Below, one piece after another: positions 24,595-50,411 of a stretch of 64,000 nt of DNA. The stretch is from IMG/VR virus record IMGVR_UViG_3300005096_000005, positions 64,001 to 128,000 of that record, one strand, 5' to 3'. The notes below the pieces were generated by a model. The model worked only from the letters and a program-made list of their open reading frames with translations, did not search any database and was not told the origin of the DNA. The DNA is from a virus. A program made the position numbers and the translations under genes. The first letter of the stretch is position 1; each line of letters starts with the position of its first letter.

Positions 24595-27500
24595 TACGGG
24601 TTCACCTCCTGTAAACCAAGTGACTGCTTTAGCGTTGTCCACGGGAAAGCGGCGCCACAATCGAACTTGCCCTGCCGAACCTGGTGATGAGTGAATATTC
24701 CGCTCCAGTTCCATGGAATACCTGTCTTCCCATAATTCGTCCATACCTCATCGGGGAATTGAGCCTGCATGTTGTGTCTTGCCATAATCCCTCTACATAA
24801 AGCGATAATTGCAGCAACCTGGACTGATGGGTAGTCCTGAAAGGCTTTCGGATTCTCTGTAATTGTTCCCTGTGGCGTAACAAACGAGAAAGCCCTGGGC
24901 CATACCGGACCAGAAGCCTCCTGCCACTGGTCTGCAGTTGCAACTTCACCCGGCGGCACTTCACGCTTACTACAAGTATACCACTTGCCATTCGGTAATT
25001 GAATTAGAGGTCCATAATTGACAATCTCAATACCAATAGTGTGCTGGTCAAATATGTGACCCCCAAATGAGCCTCTCCCCGTATGATATGACCACTTCGA
25101 TTCGTCGGCCAGTTTGTATATCGAACCATCCCTTGTAATCATATAATGTGTTCCATAGCCTCGACTGTTCCAATCCGGAATATCTGCGTCGGGCGACGTC
25201 TCTCCTCCAGCAGTGAAGTGTAAACAGATATTGTACTTGGTTGTCGGCCCGGCATGGAAAAACGTCGGGGTCTTCGTGGGTTTCAAAACTGCAAGAGACG
25301 CTGGGTCTACCATATCGACCTTCATCTGATCTATTGCAGCCTGTCCCGTTGGGTTGGCCTCTTTGTAACTACTGTTATCCCTCTCTACCGGAGGGGTTGT
25401 CAGAGCGTCAACTTTATCCATATGGTCTGTACTGTAGTATGTTTCCGAGAACGGTGAAAAGATCTTGTCGATCAGCTTATCGTAGAACCCGAGAGAGTCT
25501 CCGACAATACACCCCTGATGGCCCTCCATTCCCGCAGAGAACTCTATCCCATGAACGGTTAAGCAGTTGATAGTCACAGCCTGTCTGTTTTGCATCCAAT
25601 TGTTTATGTGTTGGACGATGGTCTGGGTCAATAAAAGTATACCACCGGCCTTGATTCCTGCCAGCATGCTTCCGGCAAAACGGCGTGCCGCGATTATGCT
25701 GGCCGGGGTTAAGTTATCTATTACAGTAGACACATACTTACCCAGTTTACTTTCCATCAGCATCGCCCAACCACTCTCTGCTTTGTCAAAGAGCGACTGA
25801 CGCAACATCATATACTTTCGTATGGTTTCAAACCCTGTCTTGTCTACCCTCAAGTACATATTGATAGCAGCCAACCTGTCGGCGTCGCTGGCGACGATTG
25901 CGTTAAGTTGATCAGAAAACTCTCCGACCCTCGTGGCTATCCTGCTGCGACACGCCGGAATGTCATCTATATGCCTCCACACATCGTGCTTTGTAACTCC
26001 CACAGCGGGATTCTTCAACAGCTCGGGATTCCCCTTAAAGAATTTATCAACTTCAGCACGTAATGCACCACCGTTAAACCATTCATCCATCACTGTCATC
26101 TTCGCGCGGTATGCAGCCTCTTTGAATGCAATGTTACTCTGTGCGGCCGCCATCTCGCTAACATTGCGATCCAATATCTCTGTCAGCTGTCGGAATTTGC
26201 TATCACCGAGCCGTGCCTTCAAATTGACCGCCGCATTAAAGTTACCGGACTCCAATACCCTCGCAATATCCTCAATGTCGTCTGCGAAGTCCACTCGCAA
26301 CGCTTCGACATCCATTATAAACTCAGTTTGTGCCGCTGTAACTGCCGGGTCGATAGAGCTACGGAACTGAAGCTTTGACCAATCATACGCCATATTGATA
26401 TCGTCAATGGACTGCATGATCTTACGGCCAATGTTTCTCCTTGTGATTAGAGGGCCTACTTCTCCTTCCTTCACTTCCGGTTCCGGCAGGTTGGCCCATC
26501 TTCCAGCGAGGTTTTTAATACGAGTGCCCCATTGGTCGAAGTCCGTAACAAGACGCACTCCCGGAACCTCTCCAATGAATCCCTGACCCACAAGCATGGC
26601 AAACACATGCCATTCGTCGTTACGCTGATCGTCCATAAATTCTACGAGAGACAGGTTGAACTGTCTGCGCAAATTCTTTACCTCAGCAACAAAGTTCTGC
26701 TCTTCTATTCGTTGCGCATACTCATGCTTTGCAAACTCCGCACCCCAGGCCCACAGATCGATCATCCTTTTGTCCACGGTCGCCACTGCACAGTCGGGCT
26801 CTGTAATGGTCAGATACCCATCCTGTGTAGAGATTATGTCTACAGTACTTCTCACATAAGCAATTCCAAACATGTCCCTGGTAGCGTCAGCTATATACTG
26901 CATGTCGTACGGTTTAATTGAAGGGTTACCTATCAATACACACTGACCCTGGTACATCTGTTTCATGAAGTCGCGCAATCTCGATCGCGCAATCGATGAA
27001 GTGTATCCTGCTGTACCAAACAGATAAGACGTTATCGATTTGAAGACTGGGAATCTGGAAACCGCTTTCGTAACCATCCCGCTGTTCACTGTGATCTTCT
27101 TTATGTGTTCTGGATGGATGTCTGTATCGGCTTTGGCGGTCTGATCAACATGCCTGCCGTCTGGGTTCTTGTATGAGTAAAGCGTTCGCGCCGTAACGAC
27201 GTTGTACAACTTCTTGCTGGAGGCTCTTATACCGTTGTTTACAAAGTCGGTCCTGTCAGTAAGAACGTGGAACTGCATGTATGGTTTGTATACCATTCCC
27301 TGCCGTTCCCATGGGGCCAGATAGTTGAGGAGCATGTCCGGGCCAATCCCTGCATCCAGAGCTTCTGACAGAGGATCTTTGCGCACATCTCTTTTGATAC
27401 GCCCTCTCGAATCCTTTTCGAAGAACTCTTTGGGGACGACAGCCTCTCCACTGGCACTGTATGTAATGTCCCTTCCCGCCCCGGTTACGAGCTGACCAAG

Positions 27501-30500
27501 CCCTCCTATTGCAACTTTCAAGCCCCCATGAACAGCTGCGGCAATGCCAAGCACTTTAGTCCCGAATGCAATATCAATAATTCCACCGCCCACTTCCCAT
27601 GCGCCACTTGTAACGAGATTTGAGTACTGTTGTTTGGCGGCTTGCACTTGCCAGGCGTGGAAGTCTGCGATACGACCCACTGTCTGAACGTGGCCCGGAG
27701 GGAATAGTCTGCCGAGGACTCGTTCGCTCTCAGGGTAGAAGTACTCACATACATAATTCCAGTATGGTTTACCAAAGAAGAACGTAGAACGCAACTCGAA
27801 AGGCTCTGCCGTTCTTATAAAGTCCGGAGCCACATCTGCGAACATCTGCGACAGAGACCAAAAAGTATGTCCGGCCGCAGCAGGCTGGAAGTTCAGGTTG
27901 GCGTCCATATCCCCGAACAGAGGAAGGTTTGAAAGATAACTTAGCCAATCTTCATTCCCGATATAACCCATATCGTTTGGAGCGTACATATTCATCTCAA
28001 GCTCTGTCACACCTAACCGGTCAGGCCCTCTGGCCACACTTCTTGGAACGGCGCCCCCAATTCCACCAACAAGAGCCCCTAACCACCAGAAAGGTCCTTC
28101 TGTAGCCACCGAAACGGCTGTCGCCCCTACCGCAGCCCCGGCACTTACCCACGTGCTGTCCCAGAAACCAGCGTCCTTATACGACTGAGACCCAAAGTGA
28201 TAGATACCGTAGGGATTGTTTTCGTACGCAGTTCCCTTCCAGACAACATTCCAGAATTCAGCCCACCGGCTTGGCGGATTACCTAACTCTCCCTTTGCCG
28301 CCATCATTCCTACCAGAAAATCACGGGCTTCAGCCCCTCTGTCAAGTGAGGCCGGCTCCTGGTATGGCTTCCATCCCATTACATTCGTTAGCTCACGCCC
28401 ATCACCTTCGGCGATCACTGTGATAGTATCTCCAAGATTACATTCCGTAACCGTTCCGGTAAAACGGTTTTTGAGAGCAGCTACATTACCGCTGTAGCCA
28501 ATGCGAATGGACATCCTAACGCCTTCTCTCAGGTACAATCCCGCATACCTGCTCATAATCCGCGTCTGAATAACCTGGGCCAGCTCTTCGTCTGTCAACT
28601 TGCGAAAAGCATGGTTAAAGCTCTTTGCGGAATCTACAGCGAAGTCATGGACCCAGTCCCACATGTAGTCGAGGCCGGTAAGCATCCAGTCTCCAAAGCC
28701 CTCTTCCTTCGCCCCTAACCGACCGGGGTCGGCGAGATTCATCTTAAGGACCTGTTCCACTTTGTCTGAAACCGGCTTCTGACTCAAACTTCTGGTGATA
28801 TTGGATAATTCGAGCACGCACGTATCGGCTGCATATTGTCTGTGTCTTCTTATAGCACAGCTTTCTATAGCATTGTAGGCGAACACGTCCGTCCAGAACT
28901 TCATCCCATACACCCGCGGCTGCTCGTTGATAAACAACAGCTTCATTGTTGGAAAGGCTCGAATCAACCGATCTCTGCCGGAGTAATATATCTCGTCCAA
29001 AAGAATGCCCGGATTGCTTTCGTTGACACCACTCATAGGAGCACCCATGTACACTTTGTCTATAGGTTTACCTGCGTACTTGGGTCCGCGCATAATGGCA
29101 TTGATAAGTGTTTCCTGGGCAAACTTATTCGTATGAGTATCGCCTGTCAGATTCATCTCACGAGACACAACCGCCATAAGAGGGATTTGTAGCTCGGCGG
29201 TGCTCAATGCACTCTTGAGGGTTCGTTCATTCAGATCGTGGAGATTAAACTGCGCATTGTGAACCTGTCTGTCGAGGTTAAGTTTCTTATCCTCCCACTC
29301 CCTTAATCTATCCTGTTGACGCTCCAGCATCAGCCTGATAGAACGAATAGCGTTTTGGGGTACCCCCTTCAGCTCTTCAAATATCTTATATTCATCAGTA
29401 CTCGAATCACGTACAGCATCCCACATGTATTGGGCGTCTGCGTATTCATCAAACAAAATTCCAAAGGTACGGTCCCACGCCTCGTCGATAGTTGACGATC
29501 CCGCTGCTTCTACTACGAAAGCTCCAGCCACTCCGAGCAACTGTCCCGGAGCTTCGGCGAGGACATCCCACAATGTTCCTCCCAAGCCCTTCCCCGATAT
29601 CTTCTTGAGTCTATTGTGCAGCTCAACTCCAATCCATATCGCCGCAGGCGCCGCTCCAGCCAACACCCCACTGTAAAGACTGGCACCAGCCAGAGCAATA
29701 CTCGCCCATTTGGCCGTATCCGATATCGCATCAACCCACCCCTCATTAGTTACAAGATCGGTCGCAATCTCGATCAAGGCCTCTCTAAGGGCATTGATGG
29801 AGCGTATGATCTGAGCCCCTTCGTTCCCCTCATCCAGGAACCAGGTCACGGCTATCTGTTTATCTAATCCGCGAGCTCTCTCTTCCAGAGACGCTTTGTA
29901 GTTTTCCGGACTACGCATCCCTGTCAGGTCTCCGATATATATATTGTCGCCAAACTTATCCACCAACCATGTTCCTGCCGTTGGATCGCCGGACTGCTCG
30001 GCCAGGATGTTCACAACTGTAGAAAGATAAGCATTGCGTGGTACCACATAAAAGTCAGGGTCGACGTATAACCCTCCATTGTCGTTTAGTACGCTCATGA
30101 TCGCTTTCAGGAATGGCACCTTCTCGGCACCGTCCTGGTTCACGCTGTGAAGTAGGTTCTCCAACGCCGCAATAGAAGCGCGAGGTTCGGTGAAGTCAAT
30201 ACCCCCTGTGATGGATTCCAATACAATGTCAGTCGCATCCTCTGGCGAGAAACTATGAGCCAGAACGCCCCGGTTGTTCGTGAAGAAATTGACGAGTCCC
30301 GCACGAATGCGTCCCAGATTCTTGCGCATTAAAAAGTAGATAACCTCAACATATCTGGGAAGAAACAGATCCGGATAAGCCTCGATCTCTGCCAACCCCT
30401 CCTTCATCTCTTTAAGCCCTTTGTTTTGCTCCGCTACCTGGATGTCGGGAGGGGTCAGCCCGGGAATATAATTGTCACTGTCAATCTTCGGGTCGGGGCG

Positions 30501-32501
30501 TTGTATAAGCAGCCCGAGGACCTCCTGAGACGTTGGGTTCAACGTGTCTATTCTCCACCAGGATCGTTTGGGCTGGTATAAGTCGTTAACCTGTCCGGAG
30601 ATGCTCTCCCACACTTTAACGCTGCCCTCAAGCCATTCTTTAGCGTGATCGAAACCAAGTGAAGTACTCAGATCAACATTTGTGGCACTATGCCTGGCAA
30701 TGTTGGCCATCGCTCCATACTCCGACCTATTCTTAAGGAATGACATTACAGGAGAAACTTTGTACGCTACGCGATTGATATCATGCTCTAACTTGCGAAG
30801 TTCTGCCCGTTCAAGCCTCCCACTGTTGAACTGAATACGAACCTTTTCCAGTCTCTTGAGCAGTTCCTTGCATTCTTCTGCATTTGTGGTGGCGGTGGTT
30901 TTATTGTCCCCCTTCAAAATTGGGGCGAGAGTATCGTAGAAAGACTTAATAGGCTGGAGAGCTTCCTTGATATTCTGGCCTCGATCGTAATCCGTTAGTT
31001 CGAGACTAACAACCCATTCCCCCGGGTACCCGGGCAAGCTTGCCGAACCCACGTGCAGAGGGATCGCGTACTTCATACCCATCATGTTTAGCAAACTGTT
31101 GTCAATCTCAAAGTATCCGGTAGGAACCTCCCCTGTCATCTGCTCAGAAGACATCTTGAGCATACTCTGGAGGTTGGATACCGCATTGTCCCTGGCCCCT
31201 ATCATCACACGTGCGCTTGCATCTCCGCCACCCATAAATTGATAGGTATGCTCGGCACTGCCTTCTACAGTGATTGGAGCAAACTTGTTGACATACCGAT
31301 ACGAGACATGGGTCGTAGTGAATACGTCAGACGGACCAAAACACGCCCACTTTTTGCTAATAAGATCAGGAACCTCCACTGTTGCCTTCTTGTAGAGGTC
31401 GGCAATACCCAGTTCCAGCATTGTGGTGATAGAGTGAATATCGACCGCCCCTCGCCCCATCACGGCTTCCATATAATCATACATTCGAGTATTCCGCATA
31501 GAACTGATAGCATTCACGAAAGCCCTGAGTTGCGCCTCGGCCGCGGCGTCGGTACCACCTCCGGCCATTCCTTCCATCTCCTGTTCCGTCAATATACCGG
31601 CACCCACCCCAACCAGAACCTTGGACAGCTCTCTGTTTTTATAACCGTCCCGGTAATCGCTGAGGAGTAGTGCGAATATCTCATACAGGGCTTTCTTTGC
31701 ATCTGTGTTAACAGAAAGGTCGGGCTCCTTCTCCATCGCATTGCCAAACGCCTCAAGATACTTCTGCAATCCCCTTTTAATGTCACCAGCCTTGTTGTCT
31801 CCTACTGCAAGAACCTGTTGCGCCATCTGATATGTGGACATTATAAGTTCAATGTACTTGGCAGAACGCTTGGCGGCTCCTAACTTGTCAGGATCGATCC
31901 CGTACATATTAAAGTATGGCGAGAACTCGTAGATGCCCTTCTGGTAAGTAGGCATTCTTTCGGCTTTGTATGTGTCCATTATGGGATACGTATCTGTGCC
32001 ATAGTGCAAGATAAACCACTCGTACAGCTCCAGATTAAATGACCCCGGGAAGTTATCGCACCACGGCATGTATATGTTGTGATTGAACTCCATCAATCCA
32101 AGAGTAACGGCCAGTTCGTTGGGCTGCTGCTCGATCGTATTGATGGAAAGAGAGTGCAAAGCTACCCCGTCAATGTGATGAACACTATTGAGACCATTAC
32201 AGTTAATCGGAACAAATGGAGTTGAACGGTACATTCTCGCCAGCCCTACCACCTTATTAAATTCCTCAGGCCCAACTTGCAAACCCACCGTGATGTACGT
32301 GGTCAGCATCTTTTCACTGATCTTCGTAGGGGCATGTTGTCTCAACACATGAGACGAACGCATCCGCTTGTTCCTTTGTACCTGTATGTTTTGAGGTGGA
32401 ACCTCAAAATCGATGAGTCCCAGAATAAACGTATCTTTGCTACTGTCCAGGTTTCTCACGTAATCCTGGAATGCAGTTGTATCTGACGATGCTACCGACA
32501 T
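24594..32501 (-). CDS. Giant baseplate hub / tail-tip protein with C-terminal N-acetylmuramoyl-L-alanine amidase (Amidase_2), 2635 aa
   Basis: Hub-like motifs GVRMSIRIGY...FTGTVTE and YQGQCVLIGNPSIKPYD. Amidase motifs ICLHFTAG, THYMITRDGSIY, SYHTG, TIGIEIVN and THHQVRQGKFDCG (about 24600-25236). Confidence 0.8.
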   Translation of the reverse strand: MSVASSDTTAFQDYVRNLDSSKDTFILGLIDFEVPPQNIQVQRNKRMRSSHVLRQHAPTKISEKMLTTYITVGLQVGPEEFNKVVGLARMYRSTPFVPINCNGLNSVHHIDGVALHSLSINTIEQQPNELAVTLGLMEFNHNIYMPWCDNFPGSFNLELYEWFILHYGTDTYPIMDTYKAERMPTYQKGIYEFSPYFNMYGIDPDKLGAAKRSAKYIELIMSTYQMAQQVLAVGDNKAGDIKRGLQKYLEAFGNAMEKEPDLSVNTDAKKALYEIFALLLSDYRDGYKNRELSKVLVGVGAGILTEQEMEGMAGGGTDAAAEAQLRAFVNAISSMRNTRMYDYMEAVMGRGAVDIHSITTMLELGIADLYKKATVEVPDLISKKWACFGPSDVFTTTHVSYRYVNKFAPITVEGSAEHTYQFMGGGDASARVMIGARDNAVSNLQSMLKMSSEQMTGEVPTGYFEIDNSLLNMMGMKYAIPLHVGSASLPGYPGEWVVSLELTDYDRGQNIKEALQPIKSFYDTLAPILKGDNKTTATTNAEECKELLKRLEKVRIQFNSGRLERAELRKLEHDINRVAYKVSPVMSFLKNRSEYGAMANIARHSATNVDLSTSLGFDHAKEWLEGSVKVWESISGQVNDLYQPKRSWWRIDTLNPTSQEVLGLLIQRPDPKIDSDNYIPGLTPPDIQVAEQNKGLKEMKEGLAEIEAYPDLFLPRYVEVIYFLMRKNLGRIRAGLVNFFTNNRGVLAHSFSPEDATDIVLESITGGIDFTEPRASIAALENLLHSVNQDGAEKVPFLKAIMSVLNDNGGLYVDPDFYVVPRNAYLSTVVNILAEQSGDPTAGTWLVDKFGDNIYIGDLTGMRSPENYKASLEERARGLDKQIAVTWFLDEGNEGAQIIRSINALREALIEIATDLVTNEGWVDAISDTAKWASIALAGASLYSGVLAGAAPAAIWIGVELHNRLKKISGKGLGGTLWDVLAEAPGQLLGVAGAFVVEAAGSSTIDEAWDRTFGILFDEYADAQYMWDAVRDSSTDEYKIFEELKGVPQNAIRSIRLMLERQQDRLREWEDKKLNLDRQVHNAQFNLHDLNERTLKSALSTAELQIPLMAVVSREMNLTGDTHTNKFAQETLINAIMRGPKYAGKPIDKVYMGAPMSGVNESNPGILLDEIYYSGRDRLIRAFPTMKLLFINEQPRVYGMKFWTDVFAYNAIESCAIRRHRQYAADTCVLELSNITRSLSQKPVSDKVEQVLKMNLADPGRLGAKEEGFGDWMLTGLDYMWDWVHDFAVDSAKSFNHAFRKLTDEELAQVIQTRIMSRYAGLYLREGVRMSIRIGYSGNVAALKNRFTGTVTECNLGDTITVIAEGDGRELTNVMGWKPYQEPASLDRGAEARDFLVGMMAAKGELGNPPSRWAEFWNVVWKGTAYENNPYGIYHFGSQSYKDAGFWDSTWVSAGAAVGATAVSVATEGPFWWLGALVGGIGGAVPRSVARGPDRLGVTELEMNMYAPNDMGYIGNEDWLSYLSNLPLFGDMDANLNFQPAAAGHTFWSLSQMFADVAPDFIRTAEPFELRSTFFFGKPYWNYVCEYFYPESERVLGRLFPPGHVQTVGRIADFHAWQVQAAKQQYSNLVTSGAWEVGGGIIDIAFGTKVLGIAAAVHGGLKVAIGGLGQLVTGAGRDITYSASGEAVVPKEFFEKDSRGRIKRDVRKDPLSEALDAGIGPDMLLNYLAPWERQGMVYKPYMQFHVLTDRTDFVNNGIRASSKKLYNVVTARTLYSYKNPDGRHVDQTAKADTDIHPEHIKKITVNSGMVTKAVSRFPVFKSITSYLFGTAGYTSSIARSRLRDFMKQMYQGQCVLIGNPSIKPYDMQYIADATRDMFGIAYVRSTVDIISTQDGYLTITEPDCAVATVDKRMIDLWAWGAEFAKHEYAQRIEEQNFVAEVKNLRRQFNLSLVEFMDDQRNDEWHVFAMLVGQGFIGEVPGVRLVTDFDQWGTRIKNLAGRWANLPEPEVKEGEVGPLITRRNIGRKIMQSIDDINMAYDWSKLQFRSSIDPAVTAAQTEFIMDVEALRVDFADDIEDIARVLESGNFNAAVNLKARLGDSKFRQLTEILDRNVSEMAAAQSNIAFKEAAYRAKMTVMDEWFNGGALRAEVDKFFKGNPELLKNPAVGVTKHDVWRHIDDIPACRSRIATRVGEFSDQLNAIVASDADRLAAINMYLRVDKTGFETIRKYMMLRQSLFDKAESGWAMLMESKLGKYVSTVIDNLTPASIIAARRFAGSMLAGIKAGGILLLTQTIVQHINNWMQNRQAVTINCLTVHGIEFSAGMEGHQGCIVGDSLGFYDKLIDKIFSPFSETYYSTDHMDKVDALTTPPVERDNSSYKEANPTGQAAIDQMKVDMVDPASLAVLKPTKTPTFFHAGPTTKYNICLHFTAGGETSPDADIPDWNSRGYGTHYMITRDGSIYKLADESKWSYHTGRGSFGGHIFDQHTIGIEIVNYGPLIQLPNGKWYTCSKREVPPGEVATADQWQEASGPVWPRAFSFVTPQGTITENPKAFQDYPSVQVAAIIALCRGIMARHNMQAQFPDEVWTNYGKTGIPWNWSGIFTHHQVRQGKFDCGAAFPWTTLKQSLGLQEVNP

Positions 32502-32502
32502 A

Positions 32503-35500
32503 TCACGCTCCTGGTAATTGAATGTTATACAATAACATCTGATCTCTCAATCTCGTGTCTGCCCCTAACAGGCCATAAACCTCCCCCGGATTCCAGATTG
32601 TAGAATGGTGAAGTATCCCACTTTCCGGCAATTCGATCCTGGGCGTTTCGGTCTTGACATTCGGCATCGACACCTTGACCTGCGTTGGTCCCTGGGCTTC
32701 GATATAAGCATGGCTCGACGCGCTGACCGTACTGGCCTGCGACATCTCTCCAACTCTCGGCGTTGCCCCTCCCTGTTTCGCGAGACGCTTATACTGTTCC
32801 CCCACATAATCAGCTTCGAGAACCTGTTTGGTACCGGAAGACATTCTGTCCATCATATTACTCGCTATGTCTTCCATCGCGTCGTCCTGTTGCCGAGCCA
32901 TTCCGCGAAGGGCATCTCGAGCTTCAGCAATTGGCCGATCTCCCTGACTCATTATACTCGGAACACCCGCCTTAACGCCAGAGGTTGACTGAAGTGATTC
33001 TGCTGCGGCGGTCGGTCCCATGCGCGGGTCTACGCTGGTACGCGCAGTAGAAACCATCTCTCTATCTATAGAAGTTCCCGCCAACGGCAACTTATTGAGT
33101 CCGGGTTCCACCCCTCCCGTAAGAGCTGAAGCGTGACCTTCATTAAGACGGCTCTGCGGGACATACATCTCAGCCCCCATGTCTGTCCTCACCTGCATCC
33201 AGGGATCCGGGTGTGCTACTCGCGGCGGAATCTTATATTCGGGCGCTTTAACATGAATACGGGAAGTCTCCAGAGTGCGGCCGGCCGCCCCAACCGCTTC
33301 GTCGATACCACCAACACCCATCAAGAGGCCGCTCTGTCTTACGCCAAGACCGTGCTGTCCTGAAACAGCCGCCTTCATGGTAGCGATCTCTGCCCTGAGA
33401 GGTCCAGTCGCATCTTCTGCGATCTTGCCATGCAACATAGCTCTAAACACTTTCTGTTGAGCGAGACTTCTCCCCGAGGCGTTTGCTGCTTCCTGCAGCT
33501 TGTCCATGGGAATTCTCATTCCACCTCTCTTTGCGCTGATCGCATCAACCGTTTTGAGGATGCGCTCTGTTTCTCTCCGGAGCAACTGCGGACTCAACTC
33601 AACCACCCCCGTAGGAGCGCGTGTCACGTTCACGCCGTCCACCGACAACAAATCCCTGACAAGGTTATCTACCTGTATCGCCTTTTGCACGTCATGGCCA
33701 GAACCCGGAATCAGAACTCTGTTGACTGCCGTAGGGTGTAGTTTGCCCGTCTCATTCAGCATGATTGCAGCACCAGTTATCGTTTCCGGAATATCTGGAA
33801 TCGGCCCCGGAACCCTGGTTTGTGATAACTTAACCGGCGTAGACATAGAAACAGCAAGATCTCTCTGGGTTGACACAGCGCCTTCTTTTCTGTATGGGTG
33901 CCTGAGCTTCTCCGGGCCAAGTTCCCGCGGCAGAACTGTCGACGTTTGAGCACTTTCGCCAATGATTCCCGCCATCTTCTTGTTGTGCTCAGCCAACGAC
34001 TCCGTCATAGCCTGTATCTCTTCCTTGTATACCGAATTGGCTTCCTGCAGTGCCAACACCGACTGCATCTCGGAGTCCACAAACTCCCTGACAGTATCGC
34101 GATAACGAGACACTTCTCGTGTAAGGTTGTCTGCTGTCTCCGCGATAGGTCGAGACACAATCCTCGGAGGTATCAATGGGCTCGTAGAAACTACCTTGTC
34201 CCACCCTCCGGCTTCACGAACTTCCACCAGTCGACGCTCTGTCTCTGATATCAGTTTATTGCTACGGACTATAGATTTGTCTAACTGCTTGAGAAGCGGC
34301 CCTCTCTGTGCCTCCAGCATCTCGGTCATCCCGCTCGCCCTGCCGAACCAACTTACTGACGAGTGCACCGCCGAATCAAACGCTCCTGCGGCCCTGGCTG
34401 CCTGAGTTCGTAACGCGGTACCTCCTACCCCTACCATACGCCCCGCTCTGGCCATAAGATTCTCAATGAATACGGACGTCTTGCCTCCAAAAGCGGCGAG
34501 CTGATCCGCGTCTCTCATGGTCATGTACGCAAGGTTGGTGGCTGACAGTTGTGACGTTATGCCTCTACTTTGGCCCATAACCTTAATAGGTCTCAAAGCA
34601 TCGCCACTTCCCTGAAACACTGGGAGATAACCCATTCGTGTCATTCTGGCTATAACAGCAGGTTGTACTGTAGGTTTCACGGGCCTTTGGACTTGACGGA
34701 CAGATTGCAGGATGTCTATTGCGATCTTGTCCGGGATACCGATAGAGGACACCATCTTCTTGAGGGCAAACTTAATCGGCACAACCGGTGGTCTGATCCC
34801 TCCGATAAACTCTCCGGGGACGCCCATCTCAGCAGCCATGTGGCCCCTGGTGTGTGGACCCATTCCGCCTGCCATACTTGGCCGTCGATTGTATGTACTC
34901 TGGACATTGCGCCGATGAGCTATCCGGTCCACCTGTGGAGTAGTCCCTCTTTGGACCTGGAGCCGCCTGAGATTGGCAGGGTCGTAAGGGTCTCTTCTGT
35001 GGCCTGCCCCCGTCAGTTTGCGAAAGATAGCGGGTACGACGATAACCCCAACGGCCAGTCCGGCTATCAGTTTTCCTCTACCCTTCACTACGCTCTGAAG
35101 GGCTTCCTTGGCTCCACTTCCCCGAGACGCAACACCCTCTATCAGCTCGTCCAACTGCTCCAGAATGTGTTTTTCTGCCGGGCGTGGCGGCGGAATAGTT
35201 ACGGTTCTTGTACTGGAAGCTCTCGATGGTGGTGGGCTCCCCAGTGGGTTGCGATGTTTTACTACCGACTCTGTCGGACTGGGAACGTGGCCTGTTTTAA
35301 TGGAACCGGAGTTTTTCACATACTTGGGAAGGTCATGTCCTGCTTTAGTCATTGACCACAGGTTATAGCCCACAGCTTTCATTCGTACGAATGAGTCTTC
35401 GCCTGCCAGTTCTTTAAGTTCGCGCTCTATCAGGTCGGCGCTTTCCATTGCACTCCGACCTCTCTCTGCAACCTTGATCTCGAACTTCTTCAGAGGTCGT

Positions 35501-35796
35501 CCGTCCGGTGTCGCAAGCTCATTCTTGCTAACCAAACGTGTTTCCTTCTTACCTTTGGCAACTTCAACCCCAATTCGCCCTCTTGCGACAGCTACCTCCT
35601 CGAGCTGCTTTTTTGTCATTACCAATATATCGCTCGTGGCTGGCTCTCCAGCCTCGTCGAAACTGAACCTAAAAACTTCTATTGTGCCAGAATTGGCGTC
35701 AACTGTTTTACTTACGACATAGCCAAAGCCCTCGGACCCCGGACTGGTCCAGAATGTACCCGGTCGGGTTGTGTCTTCATGGAGTGGGACCATCAT
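32503..35796 (-). CDS. Large helical/low-complexity protein with one TM segment; tape-measure-like or ejected cargo, about 1097 aa
   Basis: Start probably 35796 (GAGGTG SD upstream). TM segment LIAGLAVGVIVVPAIF and a coiled coil; lies between the tape measure gene and the hub. Confidence 0.5.
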   Translation of the reverse strand: MMVPLHEDTTRPGTFWTSPGSEGFGYVVSKTVDANSGTIEVFRFSFDEAGEPATSDILVMTKKQLEEVAVARGRIGVEVAKGKKETRLVSKNELATPDGRPLKKFEIKVAERGRSAMESADLIERELKELAGEDSFVRMKAVGYNLWSMTKAGHDLPKYVKNSGSIKTGHVPSPTESVVKHRNPLGSPPPSRASSTRTVTIPPPRPAEKHILEQLDELIEGVASRGSGAKEALQSVVKGRGKLIAGLAVGVIVVPAIFRKLTGAGHRRDPYDPANLRRLQVQRGTTPQVDRIAHRRNVQSTYNRRPSMAGGMGPHTRGHMAAEMGVPGEFIGGIRPPVVPIKFALKKMVSSIGIPDKIAIDILQSVRQVQRPVKPTVQPAVIARMTRMGYLPVFQGSGDALRPIKVMGQSRGITSQLSATNLAYMTMRDADQLAAFGGKTSVFIENLMARAGRMVGVGGTALRTQAARAAGAFDSAVHSSVSWFGRASGMTEMLEAQRGPLLKQLDKSIVRSNKLISETERRLVEVREAGGWDKVVSTSPLIPPRIVSRPIAETADNLTREVSRYRDTVREFVDSEMQSVLALQEANSVYKEEIQAMTESLAEHNKKMAGIIGESAQTSTVLPRELGPEKLRHPYRKEGAVSTQRDLAVSMSTPVKLSQTRVPGPIPDIPETITGAAIMLNETGKLHPTAVNRVLIPGSGHDVQKAIQVDNLVRDLLSVDGVNVTRAPTGVVELSPQLLRRETERILKTVDAISAKRGGMRIPMDKLQEAANASGRSLAQQKVFRAMLHGKIAEDATGPLRAEIATMKAAVSGQHGLGVRQSGLLMGVGGIDEAVGAAGRTLETSRIHVKAPEYKIPPRVAHPDPWMQVRTDMGAEMYVPQSRLNEGHASALTGGVEPGLNKLPLAGTSIDREMVSTARTSVDPRMGPTAAAESLQSTSGVKAGVPSIMSQGDRPIAEARDALRGMARQQDDAMEDIASNMMDRMSSGTKQVLEADYVGEQYKRLAKQGGATPRVGEMSQASTVSASSHAYIEAQGPTQVKVSMPNVKTETPRIELPESGILHHSTIWNPGEVYGLLGADTRLRDQMLLYNIQLPGA

Positions 35797-35798
35797 TT

Positions 35799-38700
35799 TC
35801 AAAGCGTCCACCTCGACAACATTGGTCTCTCGTTCGCAATTCTGTTGGCCAGCACCATCTTGCCAAATCTATTAAGGTCACGAGCCTGCTCGTCATTCTC
35901 CTCTTCCAGTTCTCTATTGACAGGGAACGGTACCTCCTCAGCAACAGCGGCCTGAAGAGCGTTTTGCAATGTGTTTGCCTGCTCGTCGCTTTCTATTCCT
36001 GAGGCGTTAATGTCTACCATGACTCTGGCCTTCTGCAGTCTCGGATTCTCCACAGGGATGCGCAAATCGGGTGAGGGTCTGTGAATTCCCCCACGCAATG
36101 GGAAAGACCTCCTGAACCCCTGAGGTTTATGGTCCTGCTCTAGCGGGTCGGTAAACATCCGGTATCCAGCATACGCTCCCGCCGCAGCTATTCCAAGAAT
36201 ACCCAGAGGCGTTAATGGTTTCTTTGTCTTTGCAATGGCCTCCGTCACTTCTCTTTCAATGTCACGTGTTGCAACGTGAGCGGCAACCGACGAATCTACA
36301 GCTTCTACAACATCTTTAGCCACTCCTCCGACCTGAGAAGCACCTCTGACCGAGAGCCCTTCGCCAAAGGGAATGTTTGCCATATCCGGCTTGGCGTATC
36401 GCGCTATAATTTGAGAGAACCCGGCCAGGTCGTCCCGACCCTGGTCAATACTCCGTCGAAGCTGTGCGAGTACACGGCGACCTTCGTCTGTCAGAAAACG
36501 CTGTCCGCCTTCTTCATACACAAAGTCTCCGATACGTCGCCCTGTGTGTTTGCCTGTCGGGATGATGACACGCTCAAGAACCTCCCTCACACGGGACACC
36601 TGAGCAGCAGATAACTCCGACGGGTCACGGAAGAAGTCGGCCCCTACACCTGCCAGAATATCGGGACTGGCTCCGGTCATATGGCTGAGGTACTGCTCTA
36701 ATGCCGCAGCCTGATCCTGCACCGGCCCAAAAAACTTGTTTGCATACACCTTGTTTACGGTATTGAGAGCATCTCTCACTTTCCACTTGTGAAACACCCT
36801 CTCTTTGCCCTGTTCGCCCAACAGAAAGGCGAATCTCTTTTTCTCCTCTACAGTGGCGCCTACAAGATTTGAGCTTGTCCATACCGGAAGTGGGGAGGCT
36901 CCCGGCGATACGGCATCGAGCGCCTGGACGTAATTGTTAATGACCTTCGTGGCGTCTGACAATTCACTGTACGGCGTTGAGAAGAATTTGCTGCTCGGGT
37001 CAATATAAGCGTATGTGGACGGCTTTAACTCCCCTGTATGCGCCTTTATACTAACAACCGTAGCAAGGGCGGTGCGCACCCGTGACGGCTTGATGTCTCC
37101 GGCATACGTGTTAACAAACTTGTTCATGCGATTCAACAACACCGGATCGACATCACTAAAGGGTATCTCTCCTGTCGCCAGCGGTTTCAATACCGGGGCT
37201 ATCTCTCTACTGATCTCGTTAAACTCTTGAACAAGATCCTGCGGCCTGGGTAACCTGAGAGGATCAATCTTCGCAAACAAGTTTGCTCTGAATAGATTGC
37301 CGAAATCCTCTCCGGCCTGACGTTCCATCATTCTTATGAGGGGGTCCAAACCTATGCTCTCATGAATGTTTCGCAAACTCTCGTGCAACATAGCCTTGGA
37401 GCGTAGAGGTAATATGTAAGCCTGTTCGCCAAGTCCCAACTCCATGATGGGCTCAATATTCCATCGGCGTGCCGTGGTGGCCCCCATGACAGCTTCAAGA
37501 GCCTCGTCCGTCATGTGGTCGCCTACTTCCATCAGATCCATAAACTTGGCAACCTGATCTTCCGTGAAGGACAACCCCTTCATAATCTGTGCCGCATGTG
37601 CGGTAGCCTCTCCGAACGACCTAAGCCCAAGCCTACGCATCCTGTACTTCAGGGATTCCTTCAACAGTTCAGAACGCTCAGCTCCCAATATTGCAAGAGA
37701 AGCTTCTTCGGCCACCAGAAACTCCTTGCTAAATATCCCCGCAGGATGAACAGACTTCGAGGCGTCAATCATAGGTTGCCACTTCTTGCTGGGATTGACC
37801 TCGGCGAATACCCGTGCGACATCCTCCATCAGCGTTTTGTCAGTTCCTACTATTGCTCCTGCACCTGGCGAAGTAAGCGACTGGGCTGCTGTCTCTGCCG
37901 CTTTCTCAATTGTCAGAGCCTTTGCTGCCTTCTGGTTGTAATCGAGCAGTATGTTCCATACCTCGCCTCGCATCTCCTGCCCGACCTCCTGAGCCTCAAA
38001 GAACCGCTTAACCACAAGGTCCCTGGTAACGTCGTCTATTCCCTGCAGCCCGGCAAGTTCTTGTGCGATACGCTTCTCATCAGCCTTAACACCAGCAGCT
38101 CGTGCGATAGCCAGGATGTTGTCTTTCATCTGCTCTGGAGTCAACCGCGTGTCGAGTAGTTTCGCCAGTACGTCTTCGTCCACATAACGATAGCCTTCAA
38201 TGGTCCTCATGTTTCTCAGTCCGTACGTCTCTTCCGGCGTGGACTGCCATAACCCCATAAGAGAAGCTGGAGTCAATGCGTCTCCGGGTGGAACCGCCTT
38301 ATTAACCCGACTCAAGGCCACCTTCATGCTAAGGCTCGCCTCTGCTCCCGTGTCATTGAGCACCCGAATACGCTCTCCCTGCGTCAGAAAACCTTCTCCC
38401 ACCTGTTGCTCTGCCAGGCTGGCAAAGTACTGACTGTCAGGGCCAATAGGCGTTTGAGTGATAACGTCCTGCACAACGCGCGGCCTGATAACACCAGACA
38501 CGGCTTCTGCAATAGAGATTTTGCGGATCTCATCACTGTTCTCAATAGCTATGCGAGCTACCCTGTCGTCTCGAAGCTTGATCTGAGCATGCCCGGCGTC
38601 TCTGTCGTAAAGGAAATCGAGCCCTTCGAATGGGGTCACTCCGAGGACCTTCTTGTACTTTTGATCAAGGCGAGCGTGCATTGTGATAATGTCTGCGACG

Positions 38701-46900: not shown

Positions 46901-49240
46901 GAGTTTGTATATGTCTCGTTCGATATCGGCCGCATCACCATGCCTAACGATATTAAACAGGTGTTCCAGGGCGTCGGCGTCAGTTCTGAGATACGTAGAG
47001 AAGGGCTTCTCCATGCCATCGATCCTGTGGGTTACTTCAAGCATCTTGGATAGAGCATCGACGGACTCCGCGGAACCGAGCACCTGCGCTCTCTCGGTGG
47101 CCTGTTTCACAGGCATCCCCTTGACCTGGTGCAGGTAGGTAGCGAGATCGTTGTCGCCCTTCTTTGCCCATTCCAACAGCTCGGAGAGCTTGTCCCTGGT
47201 CGCGCCCGTCATCGAGGTGGCGTCCTTCTCGAGAATCCTCTCCACTACTCCGAACACGTCCTTTGCCCCCATGGGCTCTCCTGTTGTTCGGCGCAGATCC
47301 TTGACTATGTTTAAAACTTCAATCTCACGTCCGGCCTCAGTAGCCGCTTTCGCTTCCTCGGCCAGTCGCTTTGCTATGTAATTCGGATTAGAGGCTTTGT
47401 ACGGATCTTTCCAATGTCCTATAAGGCGCTGAAAGAACCCTGTTGGTTCCCGATTCTGGTTGAAGTCGAGCATCTTGAATACTTTGCCGATCGCCGGATT
47501 CTCATTCAGCTTGCCGCCCCGCATCATCGCCATATCTTCCGTTATCTCTTTACCAAAGAAGATATTATCAAAGATCCAGCGCATAGGCCCAAAGCGATTG
47601 GTCACCGGATTCAACCCAACTCCGAAGGGCATCTCCTCCGGTTTCATAAAAGCACCCGTCTCCAGATTAAACAACCGGGCGCCCCCTTTAGAGTGCCCCT
47701 GGCCGAGTACCAGCATCTGCTGTTTGATGTTCCCGGCCTTATCGATAGCATGTTCCCATCCAGATACCTTTTTGACCCATCCGAGTTCAGGATGTTCAGT
47801 TCCAAAGTGAAGAAGCTGATACGGCGCCATCCGTCTGTTCTCTCTTAAGGCAGAGTGAAAGAACAATTTGGCGGGATTGAATCCCACAATAGGAATCTGG
47901 AAGTTCCGCTCAAAGGCCCCGGCTATATCGTCCAGTCCAAAGCCGACCTTTCTCAAATCGATAACCTTGCCTGTCGGGTCCTTAAATATGAACGGGTCCA
48001 CGACCACATTGCCAAGCCGTTTTACATACTGCTGTTCTGCGTTGGCGAGAATACGTGACTTCTGAAGTTCGAACTTTGCGAGCTTCATCGCCTGTTCTTC
48101 CGTGAGGTTGCCGAACATTCTCTCGGCGGCCGGTGTACGCAAATAATCCTTCACCGCCGCTTCACCAATGTCGTCAGCCAGAGCTCCGGGGATAGGAACA
48201 TACTCGGCTCTCTTCCCAAAGAAACCAACAAGGTCGGGGATATTAAATGCTTTGAGTCCAGGTCCCTCTGCTACATCCTGAATTGTGGCAAGCTTCCAAC
48301 CCGCCATTCCCTGGACCATACGAGAGAAAGGATGAGCTGCCTGATAAACGTCCTGTCCCATAGTCGCGGATACTGCATCAATAAGCTTGTTTACTATATC
48401 GCCCCGACCGGCCTGTTCTCTTACCTGTCTAGTGGTCGTGAGCATTATGTTTTGCCAGGCATGAGCTGCTATGTTCGCGTCAGCTGCCGATAACTCCCCT
48501 CCCCCAAGGGCTGCAGCTATGTCTCTCAGTTTCGCTGGCTGGTCCGTCATCAGGGATTCCCAGGACGCAAGCTCTTTAACACCCTGTACGCCACCACCCT
48601 GACCACGATAGCGTTTGCCCATAGTTACCATACGTTGCATCTCGTCCAAAACGCCCATAGCCGGTTCGCTGACGGAATCAATGGGATAACCTATATTAGA
48701 GAGGATTGTTGGTATCTTCTGTCTACTTAGAAAAGAACGAAGCTGCCCCTGCATCTCTGGGGAAAGGTGTTGTGGGGAGCGAATCTCCGTCGCCACGTCT
48801 CCCACATCACGGACAACGCCCCGCATCCCGCGGAGCATATCACCGAGAGCTGTGGCATTGGCCACATTATCTGTAAGGGTTGATCTTGTGGTTGCTGCCG
48901 CTTCCGCAAAGACGCGGCGGGCTGCCTTGAGGTTTTCTCCCGTGAATGCAGAGAACTTCGGCAGTGCGCCAACCGAAGTTCTCCACAAGAGGTTCTGGTC
49001 GGCCAGAAGTCTGAAGTATTGCTCATGGCCTTCCAGAAGAAAACGATGTGCCTGCGAAACCTTTGGGATCTGTCCCGCAAGATGCTCTACAATATCTCCC
49101 ACAAGCGGTCGGACGTACTCAGAGCGAAGAACCTGGCGCCCCAGGAGGGCGGCACCGGCGTATATACCTGCACGGACCAGGAGCGGCGTCTTCTTCCGCT
49201 CGTTTGTGTATGGGGCATCATTGCTGAACTTCGAGATCAT
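40946..49240 (-). CDS. Tape measure-like protein with embedded PD-(D/E)XK (Cas4/RecB-like) nuclease domain, 2764 aa
   Basis: Directly follows the frameshifted chaperone; helical with Gly-rich TM segments. Nuclease motifs GTKAH, SGHIDAVV, VVEIKT and QVNFY at about 42440-42965. Confidence 0.75.
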   Translation of the reverse strand: MISKFSNDAPYTNERKKTPLLVRAGIYAGAALLGRQVLRSEYVRPLVGDIVEHLAGQIPKVSQAHRFLLEGHEQYFRLLADQNLLWRTSVGALPKFSAFTGENLKAARRVFAEAAATTRSTLTDNVANATALGDMLRGMRGVVRDVGDVATEIRSPQHLSPEMQGQLRSFLSRQKIPTILSNIGYPIDSVSEPAMGVLDEMQRMVTMGKRYRGQGGGVQGVKELASWESLMTDQPAKLRDIAAALGGGELSAADANIAAHAWQNIMLTTTRQVREQAGRGDIVNKLIDAVSATMGQDVYQAAHPFSRMVQGMAGWKLATIQDVAEGPGLKAFNIPDLVGFFGKRAEYVPIPGALADDIGEAAVKDYLRTPAAERMFGNLTEEQAMKLAKFELQKSRILANAEQQYVKRLGNVVVDPFIFKDPTGKVIDLRKVGFGLDDIAGAFERNFQIPIVGFNPAKLFFHSALRENRRMAPYQLLHFGTEHPELGWVKKVSGWEHAIDKAGNIKQQMLVLGQGHSKGGARLFNLETGAFMKPEEMPFGVGLNPVTNRFGPMRWIFDNIFFGKEITEDMAMMRGGKLNENPAIGKVFKMLDFNQNREPTGFFQRLIGHWKDPYKASNPNYIAKRLAEEAKAATEAGREIEVLNIVKDLRRTTGEPMGAKDVFGVVERILEKDATSMTGATRDKLSELLEWAKKGDNDLATYLHQVKGMPVKQATERAQVLGSAESVDALSKMLEVTHRIDGMEKPFSTYLRTDADALEHLFNIVRHGDAADIERDIYKLERQQNRFLLRYIEAAQRGGIPHFDKKQQYLFKQHFKFQKGTPVQDRLLQIHEAVKSREIQMPSKLKSQLEDALEKAGVGFTTTRDGAVVKVPARKVKLQREQRSDLWRLYRETMDQVGYDIKPFKAGYKEATREMQVKTAEEILAQRGADLAAGGGVVPTRSEKWRTSTFERFFQEGAIDPGGVADSMALRKQMKEQAVEELMSFQGRVEQRLMADSGLAPLSKNWMEATKEGQALIGRQEELINMLGAGKISQAEFLAARERLTGQVDEVLERIAQFDRMSLYSSSELDAHALASRWARTYETKIKAGKPETWGPLAPVEKVRPYSGDKYVEWAMPEERQILFESISHRIMNGPKSFDKRQIMREFADTYKNRPEMKDMIEDFIDFAEKEVGGEHMAMKDARKLVDRLTEQETKAAAIGGPESPLDYVSDAKQIAQNLAVMRGRRIQDLSEQILELERRKEQLEYAPLSKTMKMLRSQIDPTRPARIDVRPGLPSPFIPFLETDEEIVKTVGRAAREALNEYYVGSALSEIDNARRFIDQLGTVLTDVEVENMHRTFDLFNLRKVAGHGPAVRQKAFVDTYEEALKLFAPRTSQTVRTDSLMKVGVAGDPTFEQLMDVLEQKAKERGINLSEAFQKGRVSMRPVEEGVYEVVSTSTRDPVDVSEGFVNRLQASANKHFGKWYQKFPPYDEFADVYRRGLGENLMLQKSLFRFDPFDVTGSIKETWKNLSRLYSGQDEHGLATVIRKMWKQFSPDKWEGGKLTTDLDHLSTTMFWPTYLTQRLSRGLGEYGLGFSLSPDKLGTASRTYYNLFKYRVAPVVAGAGLLAYIDWESEKADDAFSLPDTPRVRLSRRLANIYVGLRLDIAKVFDTVGLTDEFKRIHEAYPGMDIAMESPPGMIAGALGFNVPQNEEELKEWYREGTEDVRRGRWWLLGNSPWGGGRITAQVPNWYRRGTSGYREDTLWGGSDEFWQHYWLPTPRYPLSPLKRLTDPYWWEKKHYADRPYPLTGGAFEETMPFGGILNATVGRIIKPYKVMHREELNARAAFLGGQRNRHPALEAALIELGTTPGPEQLGQGTTQGVRLIGPGGGGTGAVTPTYVGLLAGATPTGQAIPVMSEDHSAENQITAINTDDRRKMRRRMSRRLSYFHRKINPEEVIHPNDPYYRLGQIHYNITETAGIFGFASTFFTQDKYGYGDLGAQKPVAQRADRAYGAERWFWDQGIGGLGGGVSEIGRRFLPHRRRQILEYNPILNKMPSWMPGTTGVEQNYYIDFHKGDPFTKVAFGEARLPGPGYEKLHPTLRAYHGNYGIEQFRASSLGRDLKTTVASFLNLGREAHDYDPNGKGLGRLPYEGPGSPTYEGTKAHRRLQAQWAKEGSLIEAERFVFDPRTKVSGHIDAVVRMENGYNTVVEIKTKSAKAIKELEAPQQEHMSQVNFYLYSQGLPFGFIYYTARDKPDVTKVFKVHYDPERLQRDLETVEHARQIVSDWDRKGILNRPEFYSDVDKFKILADVAPYSQSFWAMRRRMFRDKEAIMQQGRWSEVERTLENHKRRIQKYRKTEYRYVGKPDPKDASAVERTLGWMWEKFAHMDTPFHTKFLQVRSATEQYERNYLYGNDFTDWGRPVSAILVPAYRGFARHNPVVSAGLGAALGSLFFKRGPYRIIGALIGGLVGGGMSVVSRFRARLRGRKAPIPDIREKEWELNEYFDMLEYVKFRGLYSRYKQALQYVGIDMDKMDPGRQHPQLPIVDYANEYKRRFKGTAYAADVWNQRQVMAAWPAQIREFYPIFANTRSEKERERIYNQTPDNLKRFLARAWATNSPRWMSEWRAVEARKPDLKRYFATHALPGPQWEGWNPNVNLDEYKYKVAKNEGINAKRIGLWDDVARAAEANRVRVLDWRNGSFKRNSLEHRLRAVLHGAGVRDADIKVDMQDYHENRIDLRLNMRRDFTGEIIGALHKEGYHKEIESAHEDSERLQQLNAPFELQ

Positions 49241-49737
49241 CGTTGCTCTCCCTCAGGACCCGGATCTTGCGGCCCGTACACTGCGTCTGTAAAGTCCTTC
49301 GGAAAAGAGAAGTCAACCTCGTTTATCATGCCCTGAGGGATTCCCATCATATCTTGAGCAAGAGCTTCCATCTTGGTTCTTCCGTGCTCGTGAAGGAACA
49401 TCTCTTGCTGTTTCTTATCAATGGGACCCTTCTCACCTGGTTTGCGGTGGCGCTCTCCATATCTCCTGAGGCGCTCTACTCTCCGCGCTTCCTCAATTGC
49501 CTGTTTGCGTTCCGCCTCCACAATCTCTGGCGGCACGCCCAGCAGGATATCTACGGACACTTCCGTCATGCCCCTAAAGTTCATCAGTACATACTCTGCC
49601 TGTGCTGCTCGTTGAAGCCAGGTATCCCAGTCCATGGCCTCAATTTGGTCTATAGATAGGGTGGGGAACGCCTCCGCAATAAGGAGATCGATCAGTCCCA
49701 TCCCACTTAAGACGACACGCCTGTGAGAGTCTACACT
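49237..49737 (-). CDS. Tail assembly chaperone, -1 frame extension (lambda gpT-like part)
   Basis: The frame is open from the slippery site at 49737 through the track ORF 49237..49701; there is no clear SD before 49701. Confidence 0.8.
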   Translation of the reverse strand, partial: SVDSHRRVVLSGMGLIDLLIAEAFPTLSIDQIEAMDWDTWLQRAAQAEYVLMNFRGMTEVSVDILLGVPPEIVEAERKQAIEEARRVERLRRYGERHRKPGEKGPIDKKQQEMFLHEHGRTKMEALAQDMMGIPQGMINEVDFSFPKDFTDAVYGPQDPGPEGEQR

Positions 49738-49743
49738 TTTTTT
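49701..49743 (-). other. Programmed -1 ribosomal frameshift site: A AAA AAA heptamer plus 3' hairpin
   Basis: GTA AAA AAA GTG TAG (A7 at 49743-49737), an 8-nt spacer, then the bulged stem TCTCAC-AGGCG-TGT-CGTCT-TAA-GTGGGA (49728-49701). Confidence 0.85.
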
Positions 49744-50378
49744 ACTTCAAGGGCGGGGAGGAACCCCGACTGGTCCATAATATACTCGACAATCATGGAC
49801 GGTAGTCCGTACATCTCCCTGAGAAACGCCTGGTTGAAGTCAATTCCTTCCGGCCATAAGACGCAGCGATTGCACATCTCGTTCTCGCGCTCTTCGATGG
49901 TGAACGGTCCGTAGATAATAGCCTTGTACTCTGCCCGAGTCAAGATCCGATACGTGAAGCGCATTCCATTGGGGAACAGCACCTCTCTGATCTTGTCGTC
50001 TCCAAACCCGTGTCGTGCAGGATCAAACTGCTCTCCTGGATTCGGAGGAGGCCGCTTCCATAGGGCCAGTTTTTCGGGAGGCGGCGGACTCCAATCGATT
50101 CCCTCGAGGCTGGTTCTGACCCCTCCCACTGCGTCCGGCGTCCATTCATCATCGACCGGGGGTTGCTGCGGTTGTTGCGGCACACCCTTCGGTTGCTGCG
50201 GAACCTGACCTGCTGATTGCTGTGCTTGTGGAATTCCTTGTGCCGGATAATCCGGCTGTCCCGTACCCACTTCCTCCACGGACGTATCCTGTACCTGTAT
50301 TGGATCCGCCTTCTTCATAGGGCGTGCTCCTGGAGGAGGTGCGCCAGGTCCTTGTCCTTGGTTGCCATTCTGATCCAT
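49731..50378 (-). CDS. Tail assembly chaperone (lambda gpG-like position)
   Basis: Start revised to 50378 (AAGGAG SD). Contains FTYRILTRAEYKAI...CVLWP...GLPSMIVEYIMDQSGF; lies between the tube genes and the tape measure gene. Confidence 0.75.
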   Translation of the reverse strand: MDQNGNQGQGPGAPPPGARPMKKADPIQVQDTSVEEVGTGQPDYPAQGIPQAQQSAGQVPQQPKGVPQQPQQPPVDDEWTPDAVGGVRTSLEGIDWSPPPPEKLALWKRPPPNPGEQFDPARHGFGDDKIREVLFPNGMRFTYRILTRAEYKAIIYGPFTIEERENEMCNRCVLWPEGIDFNQAFLREMYGLPSMIVEYIMDQSGFLPALEVKKV

Positions 50379-50411
50379 GTCAGTTGGCTCCTTTCTCATC
50401 TTATAAACTTA

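Follow-up and report, generated by a model that had tools for sequence, protein, structure and literature searches.

A three-gene block in the tail module of a phage of the 0305phi8-36 lineage: a gp145-family protein, a probable gp146-type protein and an orphan

Canonical tape measure proteins, such as lambda gpH, T4 gp29, T5 pb2 and the TP901-1 TMP, are encoded between the tail chaperones and the hub, are ejected and membrane-active, carry hydrophobic or glycine-zipper segments near their C-terminal part and sometimes contain embedded enzyme domains. The ejection proteins of T7, P22, SPN3US and phiKZ are head-borne and leave the particle ahead of or together with the DNA. The closest described counterpart of the locus studied here is the gp145-gp146-gp147 block of the Bacillus phage 0305phi8-36, a myophage, on which Thomas et al. 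reportedly also wrote in 2007. This block was described by Hardies et al. in 2007, and gp146, not gp145, was named the "hypothetical tape measure" (PMC2147016) of a tail that is 486 nm long (PMC4113786). Here we analyse a window of 64,000 nucleotides, corresponding to bases 64001-128000 of a single phage contig of 170,138 bp (IMG/VR record IMGVR_UViG_3300005096_000005), in which three giant genes lie one behind the other between 32503 and 49240. Our reading, which we hold with slightly better than even confidence, is that these genes encode the tail-lumen proteins of a myophage from the 0305phi8-36 lineage, to which one orphan gene has been added.

All long genes of the window are carried by the minus strand, and those of the tail module are transcribed in the order sheath, tube protein, tube paralog, gp142-like protein, two chaperonin-like genes and the three giant genes. 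The first giant gene, called here A, encodes P0001 (2764 amino acids (aa), 40946..49240). The second, which directly follows it and occupies the position called here T, encodes P0002 (1716 aa, 35799..40949). The third, called here X, lies between the T position and the hub and encodes P0003 (32503..35811), which counts 1102 aa from a GTG codon or 1097 aa, as P0006, from an ATG at 35796. They are followed by the gene for a 2635-aa hub with an Amidase_2 domain, an M23 peptidase gene and gp25-like and gpJ-like baseplate genes. The genes of the block are tightly joined: an ATGA overlap links the second chaperonin-like gene to A (49237-49240) and A to P0002 (40946-40949), the P0002/P0003 junction reads TGA-AAA-ATG (35799-35794), and the P0003/hub junction reads TGA-T-ATG with a GGAG Shine-Dalgarno sequence (32501-32503). 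No terminator-like site was found at the gene boundaries of the block. The open reading frames (ORFs), the junctions and the flanking homologs described below thus bear out the first-pass annotation of this DNA in its description of three coupled giant genes (2764, 1716 and about 1097 aa) between chaperone and hub.

To which lineage the module belongs was indicated by pairwise BLAST against 0305phi8-36, which gave a gene-by-gene correspondence. The 272-aa product matches gp142; the 222-aa tail chaperonin (49731..50399, minus strand) matches gp143 (BLASTP E=6e-11) and CDS0024 of the Moorella phage MTATph1 (E=3e-13); the second, 154-aa chaperonin (49237..49701, minus strand) matches gp144 (E=0.003) and MTATph1 CDS0025 (E=2e-5); P0001 corresponds to gp145 and the hub to gp147. 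When P0001 and the hub were used in tblastn searches of 50,697 phage records, only the Bacillus phages 0305phi8-36, WH1, Edson and KLEB27-3 and the Moorella phage MTATph1 were retrieved, with the Acinetobacter phage ME3 as a weak extra match. The order sheath, tube, chaperonins, A, T slot, hub is common to 0305phi8-36, MTATph1, WH1, KLEB27-3 and ME3, each having a two-gene chaperonin, a gp145-type protein, a gp146-type protein and a gp27-like hub with lytic domains. Comparison was then made over 80 IMG/VR loci, six metagenomic contigs and five phage records. In almost all of these loci (about 90) the chaperonins precede A, a single giant gene follows A and the hub comes next. In every one of 78 related loci a chaperonin homolog precedes the A gene by no more than 2.2 kb, and A adjoins T in 44 of 48. 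The lineage comprises 137 confirmed loci in IMG/VR alone and includes phages of Firmicutes, Acinetobacter and other hosts. By gene order and sequence similarity, the tail module of the window is that of the 0305phi8-36 lineage. Since this lineage usually has two giant genes in the interval from chaperonins to hub, the view that the block takes the place of what is elsewhere a single tape measure gene does not apply here, and in place of a novel tripartite system we find the A and T pair typical of the lineage together with one orphan.

The assignment of P0001 is the firmest of the three. Searches with its residues 1500-2764 returned 78 homolog clusters of 1600-2960 aa, with E-values down to about 1e-138, and its relatives include gp145, MTATph1 CDS0026, WH1 gp096 and a KLEB27-3 protein (tblastn and BLASTP). 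BLASTP of the core blocks against gp145 and MTATph1 CDS0026 gave E=1e-34 to 1e-50 per block. The coverage profile places two conserved regions at aa ~1550-2100 and ~2290-2745 and a third, small one around aa 400-500, and the residues invariant in the gp145 family are present in P0001. Elsewhere in the N-terminal part, which over ~1500 aa is lineage-specific, ~1400 residues occur in this phage alone. These similarities clearly point to P0001 as a member of the gp145 family with a conserved C-terminal core of ~1000 residues. Scanning of viral contigs with a single segment returned nothing, and a further alignment (A3) was too variable for scanning. Compared with the 0305phi8-36 lineage, A of the window is ~700 aa longer at its N-terminus and possesses a Cas4-like nuclease.

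This predicted nuclease domain, of the Cas4/RecB-like PD-(D/E)XK type, spans aa 2141-2270 of A (42431..42820, minus strand) and sits between the two core blocks. It matches phrog_1706 (E=3e-15), phrog_2506 (E=4e-9) and phrog_1990 (E=6e-8), and GHID, EIK and QVNFY correspond to the D, ExK and QxxxY motifs that it has in common with the Cas4/RecB-family nucleases. Unlike these nucleases, it forms part of a 2764-aa protein of virion type, and no cysteine is found in aa 2090-2290, so the four-Cys Fe-S cluster of Cas4 proper is absent. Judged by its motifs, the domain looks intact. A Cas4-like insert is present in 22 of the 78 A homologs and absent from MTATph1 CDS0026. It should be noted that the gp145-family profile (positions 1509-1610 of alignment A1) matches staphylococcal nuclease (thermonuclease, E=2e-5) at a second insertion site; P0001 lacks the matching segment, and one family member scanned by itself gave no match. 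Taking the insert and the profile match together, nuclease-type domains would recur at two sites in the gp145 family. Several homologs of the family (P0007, P0008, P0017, P0035, P0070, P0073 and others) bear inteins (PF14528, PF14890). The A gene is split by a small inserted ORF in KLEB27-3 (L009; gp031, gp032 of 211 aa and gp033) and is also split in L022 and L024 (1400, 300 and 620 aa). Such inteins and splits form the pattern expected of a conserved, essential target of selfish elements.

The second core block of A contains a glycine-zipper hydrophobic hairpin of two helices (aa 2421-2459, 41864..41980, minus strand), which reaches a Kyte-Doolittle maximum of 1.52 and matches PF05433 at E=0.0027, below the cutoff of that family. 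An equivalent Gly/Ala-rich hairpin of ~45 residues is present in 63 of 69 aligned gp145-family members. In X, a single strong transmembrane helix (aa 248-266 in GTG numbering, 35014..35070, minus strand) scores 2.06 and is followed by basic residues. Weakly hydrophobic Gly/Ala-rich stretches are found at aa 1591-1609 of P0001 (1.32) and aa 1578-1600 of P0002 (1.12). The first-pass annotation had proposed a membrane segment in each protein, and hydrophobic segments do lie at all the places it gave, but only the X helix and the glycine zipper of A are convincing as membrane segments. Its description of the proteins as helical or of low complexity holds only roughly: a low-confidence AlphaFold2 model of X shows long helices and much coil, no tandem or internal repeats were found in the three proteins, and composition was uninformative as a test of helical, tape-measure-like character.

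In contrast to A, the giant genes of the T slot share only their last ~120 residues, in which a hydrophobic stretch rich in Gly and Ala is joined by a Pro-rich linker to a small terminal domain. A hidden Markov model (HMM) of this module, iterated to convergence, collected 52 proteins of 193 to 2537 aa in which the module is always found at the extreme C-terminus, behind a variable N-terminal region of about 60 to 2400 aa. Where a hub was recognised, T always adjoins it (41 of 41), the distance between the two genes being -7 to +25 nucleotides (nt). P0002 has the same layout at its C-terminus (aa 1578-1716, 35802..36218, minus strand): the hydrophobic segment GILGIAAAGAYAGY lies ~130 residues before the end and is followed by a Pro-rich linker and then by ARVMVDINASG... 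Its residues 1585-1671 are the best match of the T-module HMM among 1136 ORFs of the genome (E=0.087), and the same site ranked first of 207 windows in hhalign, with a probability of 5%. An HMM made from gp146 C-termini of Firmicute phages only, and the corresponding hhalign comparison, gave no signal in the window. No homolog of P0002 was detected by a word search of 5.8 billion proteins, by tblastn against phages or by jackhmmer against the related loci; with P0002 and P0003, searches of Pfam, PHROGs, NCBIfam, the ESM Atlas and PDB sequences returned self-matches or noise only. As position, layout and rank agree where the sequence evidence alone would be insufficient, P0002 is probably the local T, a very divergent member of the gp146 type. 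Relative to the T proteins of the 0305phi8-36 lineage, it is shorter and has diverged too far for significant sequence detection.

The T gene of MTATph1 (L002, 21846-29202) is interrupted by a transposase gene, giving pieces of 1309, 252 and 313 aa, the last of which bears the C-terminal module (E=4e-24). Unless it can do without T, this phage would be defective. The locus L006 and the P0013 contig had been considered as proof that T can be absent; both were dropped as non-structural genes interrupt the module there.

In isolated relatives, the counterparts of the first two proteins are virion components. Mass-spectrometry notes in the GenBank record of 0305phi8-36 identify both gp145 and gp146 as virion proteins, and the homologs of A and T in KLEB27-3 and WH1 are annotated as "structural protein". 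The earlier suggestion that the block comprises more than a single ruler protein is thereby strengthened. For the 1716-aa protein, moreover, an ordinary known structural protein is in part found as a relative, weakly, by way of the gp146 family, and to that extent its place in a new delivery system loses ground.

X has no detectable relative among the sequences searched and is an orphan. Only self-matches were found in the word search of 5.8 billion proteins, and no homolog was obtained by a full phmmer search of P0006 against 1.84 billion representative proteins, by tblastn against phages, by jackhmmer against 230 proteins of related loci or in its own genome. It is nevertheless a real gene: its frame is open for 1100 codons, its guanine-plus-cytosine content and codon usage are close to those of its neighbours, and its junctions are coupled on both sides. 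The low-confidence model of P0006 comprises a small N-terminal sheet, the membrane helix (residues 228-262), long helices at ~460-615 and much coil. A domain of ~80 aa common to the N-termini of P0002 and P0003 was considered and found no support (BLASTP E=6; Smith-Waterman shuffle p=0.02). Owing to this 3.3-kb gene, P0002 is not in direct contact with the hub gene, unlike T in its relatives. No locus with a recognised T has a gene between T and hub, which makes X an unusual insertion. The only other insertion at this spot was observed in L038 (16644-19712), where an unrelated gene of 1022 aa, beta-rich and tailspike-like by eye and without a Pfam match, separates the hub from a T-like gene that is recognisable by its layout alone. 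Our best guess is that X is a further virion or tail-tip protein active on membranes.

Taken together, these data suggest how the block may work. A and T would be tail-lumen proteins assembled with the chaperonins. A would serve, wholly or in part, as the length ruler and would leave the tail at infection; T, whose C-terminal module is conserved and whose gene adjoins the hub gene, would be anchored to the hub by this module. Upon contraction A and T would be expelled and their Gly-rich hydrophobic segments would enter the host membrane, with the hairpin of A inserting into it and the PD-(D/E)XK nuclease reaching the cytoplasm. X would be an extra component, located in the tail tip or the lumen and perhaps inserting into membranes. 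For a multi-protein delivery system formed by the three, as the first-pass annotation has it, we found no evidence. A more elaborate version strikes us as quite improbable: A, T and X would all sit in the lumen and be expelled one after another, with A and T acting jointly as a ruler in two parts, A carrying the nuclease into the host and X, a wholly new membrane-inserting protein, lengthening the conduit. If it were true, a ruler of that kind would have no described precedent and the 2007 tape-measure assignment of gp146 in this lineage would need revising.

As to which protein sets the tail length, this reading departs from the literature. There, a gp146-type protein is the sole tape measure, and applied to the window P0002, with 1716 aa, would specify a tail of ~260-330 nm, A being an ejected pilot or effector and X an accessory. 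The assignment of gp146 follows from a length argument, since its 2537 residues fit the 486-nm tail at 0.19 nm per residue (PMC2147016, PMC4113786), whereas the 1930 residues of gp145 would require 0.25 nm per residue, a value above the rise of an alpha-helix. Furthermore, T evolves as tape measures do, only its C-terminal end being conserved and its gene adjoining that of the hub, and a long conserved core with enzyme inserts, such as that of A, is unusual for a ruler. The comparison of loci argues in the opposite direction. L050 and L052, two contigs from different metagenomes, encode at 12288-12869 a minimal gp146-family protein of 193 aa that consists of the C-terminal module alone (E=5.5e-20) and lies between a gp145-like gene of 1292 aa and a hub of 1982 aa, so that A is the only product of tape-measure size between chaperonins and hub. 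The A proteins of L050 and L046 (1292 and 1310 aa) are 55% identical over their full length, whereas their T proteins measure 193 and 1514 aa, respectively; throughout this small-A clade A remains at 1251-1363 aa while T varies about ten-fold (193-1859 aa). A T reduced to 193 aa next to an A of unchanged length speaks against T as the sole ruler, as do the interruption of T in MTATph1 and the chaperonins, which always adjoin A and not T. On balance the model from the literature appears unlikely for this block. Alternatively, A and T, perhaps together with X, might be arranged one behind the other in the lumen, and the tail length would then follow from the sum of their lengths. In 0305phi8-36, gp145 and gp146 together have 4467 residues, or 0.109 nm per residue of the 486-nm tail, and such a sum would reconcile the short T of L050 with the long tail of 0305phi8-36. 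Against the large-A clade (standard deviations (sd) of 122 for A and 163 for T), the lengths of A (2764 aa) and of T (1716 aa) in the window are both strong outliers, yet their sum of 4480 aa falls on the mean of this clade (4361, sd 184). By contrast, compensation between A and T lengths within clades is unclear (r = -0.19, -0.15 and +0.51), the match of the sum is a single data point, and inclusion of X (5577 aa) takes the block off the trend. We know of no tandem ruler made of two proteins, which also counts against this alternative, and we doubt that it applies. Overall, these comparisons somewhat favour A, or A together with T, over T alone as the putative ruler; they weaken the published assignment of gp146 and do not settle it. 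No tail length was found in the literature searched for ME3, WH1, KLEB27-3 or MTATph1; 0305phi8-36 is the only calibrated relative. The first-pass annotation had taken the first protein for the tape measure; the literature gives this role instead to the gp146 family (PMC2147016), an assignment that the comparative data make less secure.

Other accounts of X can also be given. P0002 and P0003 might be the two halves of a single gp146-type gene broken by a frameshift, a sequencing error or a recent mutation, in which case the true layout would be A-T-hub. Their reading frames differ and overlap by 13 nt, their combined 1716+1102 = 2818 aa come nearer to the T proteins of the large-A clade (1858-2537 aa) than 1716 aa alone, a split of a 2422-aa T is seen in L033, and a similar two-gene state in BtI1 has been put down to a frameshift error (PMC2147016). 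The T-type layout and the best HMM match, however, are found at the end of P0002, while P0003 scores nothing with the T-module HMM, and the frame of P0003 is closed 21 codons upstream of its start. A frame closed in this way and the lack of a T module argue that P0003 is not the frameshifted tail of P0002; in addition, no slippery heptamer was seen by eye at the junction, and Gly, Pro and Ser are more abundant in P0003. A split gene is therefore very improbable. That X is neither a lumen nor an ejected protein seems to us rather unlikely: it could be a newly acquired N-terminal extension of the hub that has become detached, acting as a tail-tip accessory, or a non-virion membrane protein whose gene is a moron within the tail operon. 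The stop codon of X and the start of the hub are 1 nt apart, the N-terminal lytic domain that the hubs of relatives possess is missing from P0004, and the termini of hubs are known as hot spots of domain turnover (PMC2147016). L038 has its unrelated gene at the same spot, and morons interrupt the tail module in L004, L006 and L007. On the other hand, X resembles neither a hub extension nor any other protein, and a gene so closely coupled to both neighbours in an operon of structural genes is more likely to have a structural role itself.

Several observations weigh against the tail-lumen interpretation that we prefer. None of the three proteins matches a curated tape-measure profile in Pfam, NCBIfam or PHROGs, and the relatives of A and T are likewise without a match to such a family. 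Taken on its own, the sequence link between P0002 and the T family is not significant. A as the only ruler would require from gp145 the rise per residue, exceeding that of an alpha-helix, given above. The loci with the shortest T, L050 and L052, are metagenomic contigs known from their genes, and their virions have never been seen. AlphaFold2 models were of no help: that of the A core (aa 1640-2100, from a seven-row alignment) had a predicted local distance difference test score (pLDDT) of 34.6 and was unusable, and the single-sequence model of P0006, with a pLDDT of 37.6, was poor. X, finally, as regards expression, location and partners, is known here from its gene sequence alone.

The hub that bounds the block, P0004 (2635 aa, 24594..32501, minus strand), belongs by similarity to the gp147 family. 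It matches phrog_20474 (E=2e-104), gp147 (BLASTP E=5e-27) and MTATph1 CDS0032 (E=4e-37), and its C-terminus carries an Amidase_2 domain (PF01510, E=9e-12). Its conserved N-terminal block aligns only from residue ~260-307 of gp147 and CDS0032, indicating that the lytic domain found at the N-terminus of these relatives is missing. Thus, in comparison with gp147 of 0305phi8-36, the hub lacks the N-terminal transglycosylase and ends in Amidase_2, and the M23 peptidase, which is fused to the C-terminus of gp147, is encoded here by a separate gene of 420 aa (22692-23954, minus strand). At the other end of the module, the tail sheath (1953 aa, 53655-59516, minus strand) matches its family (phrog_16991, E=6e-80) only within its last ~340 residues; the remainder consists of a large acidic insertion with many Gly, Thr and Asp residues.

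Relative to the systems with which we began, the locus differs from 0305phi8-36 also in the 1097-aa orphan between T and hub, and from canonical tape measures in having two or three giant proteins in place of one and, as the embedded enzyme, a nuclease where those carry a muralytic domain. With the ejection proteins of T7 (gp14, gp15 and gp16), P22, SPN3US and phiKZ (PMC5694885) it has in common the concept of large virion proteins that leave the particle and act at or across the envelope. It shares no homology with them; its genes are located in the tail module, and ejection of their products is here a proposal.

Most of the block is thus accounted for by the module described in 2007, of which it is a large, divergent member with one orphan insertion. 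Should none of the roles proposed above hold, it would simply be a large member of a known module. What the comparison shows of the A and T families is of some use to phage structural biology. The roles of the two giant proteins of this lineage have rested on one length argument since 2007, and the comparison of A and T offers a concrete way to test which of them is the ruler and whether a nuclease is delivered through the tail. X, for its part, shows that even a tail core as tightly coupled as this one can accommodate an extra gene of 3.3 kb whose origin is unknown.

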